From sequence record MK327931.1: a stretch of DNA of 64,000 nucleotides; one strand, given 5' to 3'. The notes under the pieces were generated by a model. The model ran no database searches. It was not told the DNA's origin and worked only from the letters and a program-made list of their open reading frames with translations. Below, in pieces: positions 50,596 through 50,680 of the stretch (its first letter is position 1; the number at the start of each line of letters is the position of its first letter). The position numbers were made by a program, and so were the translations under genes. This DNA comes from Escherichia phage vB_EcoM_G17.

Positions 50596-50680
50596 ACTAT
50601 TTTATCAGGGGAGTTTTTCGTATGTCTTACTCCTGGACTACTTAACAGGGTTACTTATTTCGTTCCCCGTCCTGATGTAA
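50596..50680 (-). other. conserved structured leader element, copy 1
   Basis: About 85 nt without ORF between two tandem promoters; ends can pair (ATCAGGacGGGGA with TCCCCTGAT); homologous to 60584-60672 and 57534-57656. Confidence 0.4.

Follow-up and report, generated by a model that had tools for sequence, protein, structure and literature searches.

We found that three repeats in the early region of Escherichia phage vB_EcoM_G17 (MK327931.1) are real copies of a small, undescribed RNA pseudoknot that unrelated virulent enterobacterial phages, including T7 and T3, place at the start of their first host-transcribed RNAs, and whose function is unknown. The conserved unit is a 36-37-nt core with the form UAAGUAG-N-C..[S2 5']..UAAG-N'-C..A.GAAAA..[S2 3'], in which stem S2 co-varies and the loop triplet G-N'-C pairs with the upstream triplet G-N-C. 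A variable hairpin and a closing helix flank this core. The same core lies between promoters A1 and A2 of T7. The 64,000-nt stretch of DNA that was analyzed, hereafter the window, is the terminal-repeat early region of an Asteriusvirus jumbo phage, and the region around the element is 96-99.8% identical to Escherichia jumbo phages of the PBECO4/121Q/Sharanji group (Asteriusvirus).

The original prediction described an ORF-free, structured leader element in three copies at 50596-50680, 60584-60672 and 57534-57656, each directly downstream of a promoter and two of them between tandem promoters. This observation was confirmed, with the addition that all three copies read on the minus strand. The sequence ACATCARGACGGGGA has three exact matches (50664-50678, 57637-57651 and 60654-60668); with up to 3 mismatches there are 12 matches against 1.4 expected, and the extra matches are the 5' arms of the ordinary early-leader hairpins. 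The 3' motif AGTAAGNCNNACGAAAAACT occurs exactly three times, against 0.26 expected. A covariance model of the 37-nt core revealed exactly three hits in the 64 kb (57597-57632, 50609-50644 and 60597-60632, all on the minus strand) at 50-54 bits (E about 1e-18), and the next best hit scored 8 bits. No ATG occurs in any copy, the only listed ORF overlapping a copy is a TTG-start 42-aa frame that spans the promoter itself, and homologues differ by 1-nt indels inside the core; the element is therefore not a protein-coding small ORF. The CDS 'gp0.1' that overlaps the pseudoknot in the phage K1F record (nt 352-567) and the 'hypothetical protein' calls in some Salmonella, Klebsiella and Escherichia phage records are probably spurious, given the indels and the RNA covariation.

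Copy A follows promoter P1 at 50684-50711 on the minus strand (TTGCAT, 16-nt spacer, TATAAT, with an A/T-rich upstream tract), which has the same design as about 30 other early promoters in the window. Its start site is inferred, by analogy with T7 A1 (TACAGCC-AUCGAG), to be the A of AUCAGG at 50676. The whole RNA domain of copy A spans 50604-50676 (minus strand) and comprises the 5' arm of closing helix P0 (AUCAGG, 50676-50671), hairpin Pa (ACGGGG/CCCUGU, about 50670-50645), the pseudoknot core UAAGUAGUCCAGGAGUAAGACAUACGAAAAACUCCC (50644-50609; S1 GUC/GAC, S2 GGAG(U)/(A)CUCC, N/N' = U/A) and the 3' arm of P0 (CCUGAU, 50609-50604); its covariance-model score is 52.4 bits. A second promoter, P2, lies at 50568-50595 on the minus strand and matches the consensus at 12/12 positions (TTGACA, 16-nt spacer, TATAAT; the -35 hexamer starts at 50595). 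It is followed by a short leader and the gene at 50259-50534 (phrog_14947, unknown function). Copy B is similarly arranged on the minus strand, with P1 at 60674-60701 (TTGCAA, 16-nt spacer, TATAAT), the RNA domain at 60592-60666 (P0 AUCAGG/CCUGAU; Pa ACGGG(G)AA/UUCCCGU; core 60632-60597 with N/N' = C/G), and a P2 of the same 12/12 consensus at 60556-60583 (-35 hexamer starting at 60583) ahead of the gene at 59912-60523 (phrog_5162, unknown function).

Copy C belongs to a short class with no Pa hairpin. Its P1 at 57657-57684 on the minus strand (TTGACA, 16-nt spacer, TAGAAT) comes directly after an intrinsic terminator at 57765-57744, and its RNA domain at 57591-57649 (minus strand) has the 5' sequence AUCAAGACGGGGAGCAC, a core at 57632-57597 (S2 CCAGU/ACUGG, N/N' = A/U) and the closing helix GACG (57644-57641)/CGUC (57594-57591). 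In contrast to copies A and B, it is followed only by a weak second promoter at 57553-57581 on the minus strand (TTGATA-N17-TAAACT), then by the gene at 57051-57533 (phrog_27871) and a terminator at 57029-57008. The terminators at 57765-57744 and 57029-57008 are identical (AGCCCACCTTAAACAGTGGGCT + T-run) and bracket the promoter-element-gene unit, which therefore looks like a self-contained, moron-like cassette. The short class also occurs in the Vequintavirinae phage LTH01, in Erwinia phage Hallingskeid and in two metagenomic phage contigs, L143 and L147.

From about 44 kb to the right end of the window, the minus strand carries dozens of small genes, at least 24-30 of which are preceded by almost the same sigma70-type promoter and the same kind of leader (...TATAAT-GTTTTAC-AUC(A/G)AG-[G+C hairpin]-...AGGA..AUG). 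These about 30 near-identical promoters lie between 44100 and 63750 (for example 62398, 61938, 59899, 56328, 54815, 53561, 51565 and 47134), and the hairpin arms co-vary between copies, so that the sequence differs while the pairing is kept. The initial transcribed sequence resembles that of T7 A1 (AUCGAGAGGGA...UCCC), and a shared 'promoter + 5' hairpin' cassette therefore seems to circulate among T7-like, rV5-like, phAPEC8-like and jumbo phages. Additionally, a second gene-less promoter module was present on the minus strand at about 44700-44850, 47450-47600, 50720-50870, 54005-54155, 60805-60955 and 62700-62850. In this module, a hairpin AAAAAGGGATTGACTCCGGTCAGTCCCTTT contains a TTGACT-N17-TATTAT promoter and also scores as terminator-like, and about 25 nt further on lies a conserved CCCA-NN-GGGUGC-R-GGAG-UGUAUC, which can form a G.U-rich hairpin in the sense orientation only. 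The module sits directly upstream of P1 of copies A and B, giving three promoters in tandem, and a similar motif occurs in phage Munch (about 3180-3215 of the locus examined) in the opposite relative orientation. Strong sigma70-like promoters on the plus strand at 58511-58539, 60747-60775, 62635-62662 and 62976-63004 (11/12 matches; those at 58511 and 60747 have a TG-extended -10) point against the direction of the early genes and may give antisense or divergent transcription within the early region. Outside this region, we observed arrays of diverged direct repeats, with 5 copies of about 145 nt spaced 437-484 nt apart at 24129-26112 and about 10 copies of a 50-nt motif at 36969-43147, which probably reflect tandem paralogous small genes.

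In vB_Ec-M-J, a relative with annotated ends, this early region is the 21.5-kb direct terminal repeat, read inward from the left physical end. All three copies lie inside it, 3.8, 6.8 and 14.2 kb from the end, giving six copies per genome. Downstream of the first strong promoter of the window (-35 at 63635), roughly 0.7 kb (about 62900-63600, minus strand) has no credible ORF, and the first 1.76 kb (1-1760) of the vB_Ec-M-J terminal repeat has no CDS; this may be a long non-coding leader at the physical end of the genome. By alignment with vB_Ec-M-J, the right edge of the window is about 0.4 kb from that end.

To understand whether the element was private to this phage, we compared it with other phage genomes. 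A blastn search with the 77-nt insert found 44 records, including the ~145-kb phages muut, outra and EmilieFrey (Justusliebigvirus) and A73, W70, A7_1 and A5-4 (Vequintavirinae). In the three of these that were read (muut, EmilieFrey and A73), the layout was again P1-element-P2, but in front of different genes. The central 35 nt of copy C match T7-group phages at nt ~550-590, the Salmonella/Klebsiella jumbo phages Munch, 7t3 and fENko-Kae01, Hallingskeid and LTH01. In T7, the core is nt 551-587, which is +54 to +90 of the RNA from promoter A1 (+1 annotated at 498), and it ends 2 nt before the -35 of A2. A blastn search with the T7 version found 486 phage records, comprising T7, T3, K1F, LIMElight, and Klebsiella, Yersinia, Serratia, Citrobacter, Enterobacter and Aeromonas phages, and almost none has a feature annotated over the element. 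One copy was found per T7-like locus; an apparent second, degenerate copy in the T7 A2-A3 spacer was a resemblance by eye only and gave no covariance-model hit. A degenerate pattern recovered the core in 42 IMG/VR loci and 57 metagenome loci, whereas a 14-base pattern scan of IMG/VR gave mostly chance hits and was discarded, and an over-specific 24-base pattern found only phage 121Q. The element thus belongs to a family present in hundreds of phage genomes from at least five lineages.

The element was not found in cellular genomes. Of 18 pattern matches in 185,579 species genomes, only one, in a 2.7-kb phage-like MAG fragment, was genuine, and nothing similar was found in 5,426 complete E. coli genomes at E<=10; host mimicry and a prophage origin were rejected on these results. 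A scan against Rfam, which the original prediction had proposed as a check, gave 0 hits at gathering score in the whole window with Rfam 15 and 0 hits at E<=10 on copy A, and no hit overlapped the element in copies B or C, T7, L147 or LTH01. ARAGORN found 0 tRNA or tmRNA genes in the window. Full-text literature searches, which did not extend to older subscription-journal papers on T7, found no description of the element, and the three papers that print the T7 sequence use it only as a promoter fragment.

We next examined the structure using 32 distinct cores aligned in 37 columns. Covariation had been put forward in advance as the test of a conserved fold, and it was clearly positive. In stem S2 (columns 11-15 with 33-37), three pairs showed CG in 27 and GC in 5 cores; CG in 25, GC in 5 and UA in 2; and UA in 21, AU in 10 and UG in 1, while the outer pair showed GC/GU/AU. 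The loop triplet G20-N'-C22 was complementary to G7-N-C9, and the middle pair (8-21) was AU in 22 cores, CG in 4, UA in 4 and GC in 1, with one mismatch (C.A, in EmilieFrey at about 2527-2562 of the locus examined, the only genuine copy with a mismatch at this pair). N/N' can thus pair in 31 of 32 cores, so the core is an H-type pseudoknot. Overall, 97.3% of cells were paired, against 15-33% when partners were slid by 1-3 columns, and the covariation score was 0.453 against 0.139 in shuffles, with 0 of 500 shuffles reaching it. RNAalifold recovered S2 on its own. The UA, CG and GC variants of the pseudoknot pair occur in different backgrounds, namely the long class of the jumbo and rV5-like phages and the T7-like loci L139, L242, L237 and L143/L147, and are therefore repeated independent events. 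The search pattern left N and N' free, and among chance matches to it (no S2, 29 bits or less, against 42-64 bits for genuine copies) only 6 of 32 had Watson-Crick N/N'. G.U pairs occur in the sense orientation and would be A.C mismatches on the other strand. S1 could extend to G4U5A6/U24A25C26 with one bulge, which would give a classical H-type knot with a 1-2-nt L1 and a GAAAAA L3, but those columns do not vary and this extension is only a model.

The features flanking the core differ in sequence between lineages. In most lineages, Pa ends 0-1 nt before UAAGUAG, and its stem is CCGG/CCGG, ACCG/CGGU, UCCAG/CUGGA, CCAC/GUGG, CGGG/CCCG, GCCGGG/CCCGGU, GGGAUG/CAUUCC, or, in the window, ACGGGG/CCCYGU. 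Outside the T7-likes, the closing helix joins the first transcribed nucleotides to the bases just after S2. It is AUCAGG/CCUGAU in copies A and B, where it is invariant in all ten long-class sequences and hence uninformative, and elsewhere it is GACG/CGUC (copy C), GACGG/CCGUC, CGGC/GCCG, GCGGC/GUCGC, CGAAG/UUUCG, or AUC..CGG/CCG..GAU changing to AUG..CGG/CCG..CAU. The MFE folds of copies A and B gave exactly P0 + Pa + S2.

The interpretation offered by the original prediction, a cis-regulatory RNA structure or a small RNA processed from the leader, was partly supported. The element is a structured, non-coding RNA in promoter-proximal leaders, but sequence alone did not distinguish action in cis from a processed small RNA, and the predicted fold, in which the two ends of the element pair (ATCAGGacGGGGA with TCCCCTGAT), was largely wrong. 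Only AUCAGG/CCUGAU of this pairing survives: GGGGA pairs locally with (U)CCCY in a hairpin, CUCC of 'ACTCCCC' pairs with GGAG in S2, and copy C has no TCCCCTGAT and closes with GACG/CGUC instead. As an oddity, muut (about 2497-2580 of the locus examined) has one extra G and one extra C in the two homopolymer runs that had been paired, which hints at an alternative conformer. Finally, 'three copies' understates the distribution of the element.

The genomic context bears on function. The element always lies within about 20-55 nt of a strong sigma70 start site (within about 20-35 nt of the inferred start site in the window) and at the head of a transcription unit. A second promoter starts 2-48 nt after S2 in five lineages. 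The genes that follow belong to six unrelated families of unknown function, and in T7 the gene is ocr; only the gene of copy C travels with the element, to Munch and Hallingskeid. T7-like early regions and the window share no protein, and the core is nearly invariant across Limelightvirus, Kayfunavirus, Berlinvirus, Teseptimavirus, Aeromonas phages and the jumbo phages. L143 (5330-5500) and L147 (4050-4230) have the simplest arrangement, with one promoter, a closing helix around GCAACAC plus the pseudoknot, then after about 24 nt a boxA-like sequence ((C/U)GCUCUUUAA(C/A)AA, followed in L147 by UCUGGU as in T7) homologous to the T7/rrn boxA, and then the first gene; this may be the ancestral form of the T7 A1...boxA leader. 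In T7 and phiA1122, that boxA lies after A3, and in T7 two promoters and about 220 nt separate it from the knot. In the window, boxA (GCUCUUUAACAA-like) was not above chance (9 matches against 8.3 expected).

What the analysis demonstrates is an independently folding, co-varying RNA domain at the very 5' end of early transcripts started by host RNA polymerase, with a 36-37-nt H-type pseudoknot (S1, an S2 of 4-6 bp and an A-rich L3, ..A.GAAAA) as its invariant heart, whereas everything about its action is inferred. We infer that the near-invariant loop nucleotides are a recognition surface for a conserved host component, as the phages that carry the element share no early protein and the genes that follow it are unrelated. 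The explanation we rank first, only tentatively, is that the pseudoknot acts in cis and co-transcriptionally on the polymerase that has just made it, in the manner of HK022 put RNA or a nut/rrn leader. In this view, complexes started at the upstream promoter (P1 here, A1 in T7) would become resistant to pausing, backtracking and termination and could run through the strong promoter-bound polymerase immediately downstream and on through the early unit, while complexes started at P2 would lack this modification. The reasons are the strict promoter-proximal position, the independence from gene content, the likely host partner, the boxA neighborhood in the simplest lineage and the precedent of putL, which is about 70 nt, lies directly after PL, needs no phage protein and binds the beta' zinc-binding domain (PMC9378689). 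However, the mechanism is an analogy, with no experimental or transcript-level evidence here. In this jumbo phage nearly every gene has its own promoter and units end at terminators, so read-through is not obviously needed. In T7-likes, only A1 transcripts carry the element, not A2 or A3 transcripts, and an element meant to modify all early polymerases would sit downstream of A3, as boxA does. Decades of in vitro work on T7 A1 templates have not reported an effect of this leader on elongation, and the layout of a gene-less promoter cassette fits an RNA product at least as well.

We compared the element with the closest systems. Like put, it is a short structured RNA made immediately after an early phage promoter by host RNA polymerase, independent of the downstream gene and with no shared phage protein found. 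However, put consists of two long stem-loops in a V shape, separated by one unpaired base, with a minor-groove triplex-type tertiary element in stem I and no pseudoknot (PMC9378689). The supported structure here is instead a hairpin plus an H-type pseudoknot, there is no sequence similarity, and put occurs in a temperate lambdoid phage with a single promoter. Suppression of pausing and termination in cis, and its block by rpoC zinc-binding-domain mutations, were not assayed for the present element. The lambda nut and E. coli rrn leaders (boxB hairpin + boxA) are likewise leader-RNA signals near the start of early or rRNA operons, but boxB is a simple 15-nt hairpin with a GNRA-like loop; with boxA close to the knot in L143/L147, distant in T7 and phiA1122 and not above chance in the window, boxA adjacency neither places the element among these sites nor excludes it. 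The T-even gene 32 mRNA leader pseudoknot is a compact H-type pseudoknot at the 5' end of a phage mRNA leader that acts as a protein-binding nucleation site, but it belongs to one gene (autoregulation by gp32) and has different sequences and loop lengths, whereas the present element is not tied to any gene. Type III antitoxin RNAs (ToxI) and phage pseudo-ToxI mimics offer a roughly 36-nt pseudoknotted unit that phages use against a host system, but ToxI units are tandem repeats flanked by toxin cleavage sites. Here there is a single unit per promoter, with no tandem array and no Rfam ToxI match, and its near-invariant sequence across many hosts does not fit mimicry of a variable defence locus.

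Almost as likely, though also tentative, is that the RNA itself is the product, with P1 plus the pseudoknot forming a small non-coding RNA 'gene' without its own terminator. The folded 5' domain, possibly released by RNase III in T7 or RNase E elsewhere, would bind and titrate a conserved host protein or defence factor in trans within seconds of DNA entry, and P2 would independently serve the downstream gene. This reading best explains that the cassette is an extra, ORF-free promoter upstream of genes that already have a consensus promoter, that only the first promoter carries the element in T7, and that there are three copies per terminal repeat. It is also consistent with the position of the element before unrelated genes, its movement between phage lineages as a module, a closing helix that includes the +1 nucleotides and gives a discrete domain with a protected 5' end, the second gene-less promoter module in tandem, the near-invariant loops and the absence of a shared phage protein. 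In contrast, no terminator or conserved processing site defines a 3' end, no partner is known, there is no similarity to Rfam sRNAs or antitoxin RNAs, and the strict promoter-proximal position is not required for a trans-acting RNA. In its boldest form, which is possible but not likely, the pseudoknot would be a trans-acting RNA weapon, an aptamer-like decoy transcribed from the strongest, first-entering promoters that neutralizes a conserved host defence, RNA-decay or transcription factor before any phage protein can be made, passed as a promoter+RNA cassette between unrelated virulent phages (T7-likes, rV5-likes, phAPEC8-likes and 350-kb jumbo phages).

An RNA stability or processing element is unlikely. 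The knot plus the paired 5' end would protect P1/A1 transcripts from 5'-end-dependent RNase E attack or scanning, or would direct a specific cleavage, including as an unrecognized self-cleaving ribozyme. The ordinary early leaders of this phage and T7 A1 all begin with a 5' hairpin, the element keeps the 5' end paired, and small pseudoknotted ribozymes are common near phage genes. However, a simple hairpin suffices for protection and is what about 30 other leaders use, so the invariant loop sequence is unexplained; there was no Rfam ribozyme match, and full-length A1 run-off transcripts are routinely obtained in vitro, which argues against self-cleavage. A hammerhead-like reading of T7 CUGAUAAG...GAAA was lineage-specific, with no stem II.

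A small ligand-sensing aptamer reporting a host metabolite or signal to the phage is still less likely. The size (about 35 nt, as in preQ1-I), the H-type topology with an A-rich 3' loop, about 20 invariant positions out of 37 in loops and junctions, and the co-varying stems are typical of pseudoknot aptamers. However, there is no conserved expression platform, as a promoter, boxA or variable sequence follows at variable distance; the downstream genes have their own promoter, there is no metabolic gene context and no Rfam riboswitch matched at E<=10, while ligand binding was not examined. An intrinsic terminator or attenuator was rejected, as no U tract follows S2 or P0 and the terminator scan reported nothing in the element. 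Resemblances of AAGUCG..AACAGGUA to the 16S 3' region and of GUCGCA..CGAAAAA to the rrn leader are not conserved across the family, because N' and the neighboring bases vary. A mini-ORF AUG-AAG-UAA in T7 A2 was not conserved, and CsrA (GGA) and Hfq (ARN) motifs were present only in some lineages. A DNA-level signal (an UP element or factor-binding site for the downstream promoter, a packaging or recombination site, or a fossil of a deleted gene cassette spread by recombination) is very unlikely and largely refuted by covariation: although ACGAAAAAC lies at about -50 to -43 of T7 A2, where an UP element would be, the element is always near promoters and in terminal regions, and 87-100% identity between lineages could reflect recent transfer, compensatory changes preserve pairing and not sequence in both helices, G.U pairs are strand-specific, the next -35 lies 2-48 nt away with no next promoter in L143/L147, and the core is conserved across hundreds of genomes whose flanks have diverged.

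The element is a new RNA structural family, absent from Rfam and almost never annotated, shared by horizontal transfer or deep conservation among at least five lineages of virulent phages of Enterobacterales and Aeromonas. It resembles the known promoter-proximal leader RNAs of phage early operons but has a different fold and an unknown partner. T7 is among the most dissected genomes in biology, and its A1 promoter with its natural leader is a standard reagent; even so, the 37 nt at T7 551-587 carry a co-varying pseudoknot that, as far as we could find, is neither annotated nor in Rfam, and that is also relevant to constructs that reuse the A1-A3 region. Phages with no other homology keep the same knot almost letter for letter and place it in the first RNA they make, which suggests that it engages a conserved host function at the start of infection. 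It may be a second, structurally different example of a protein-independent RNA that reprograms host RNA polymerase, or it may instead be an RNA decoy.
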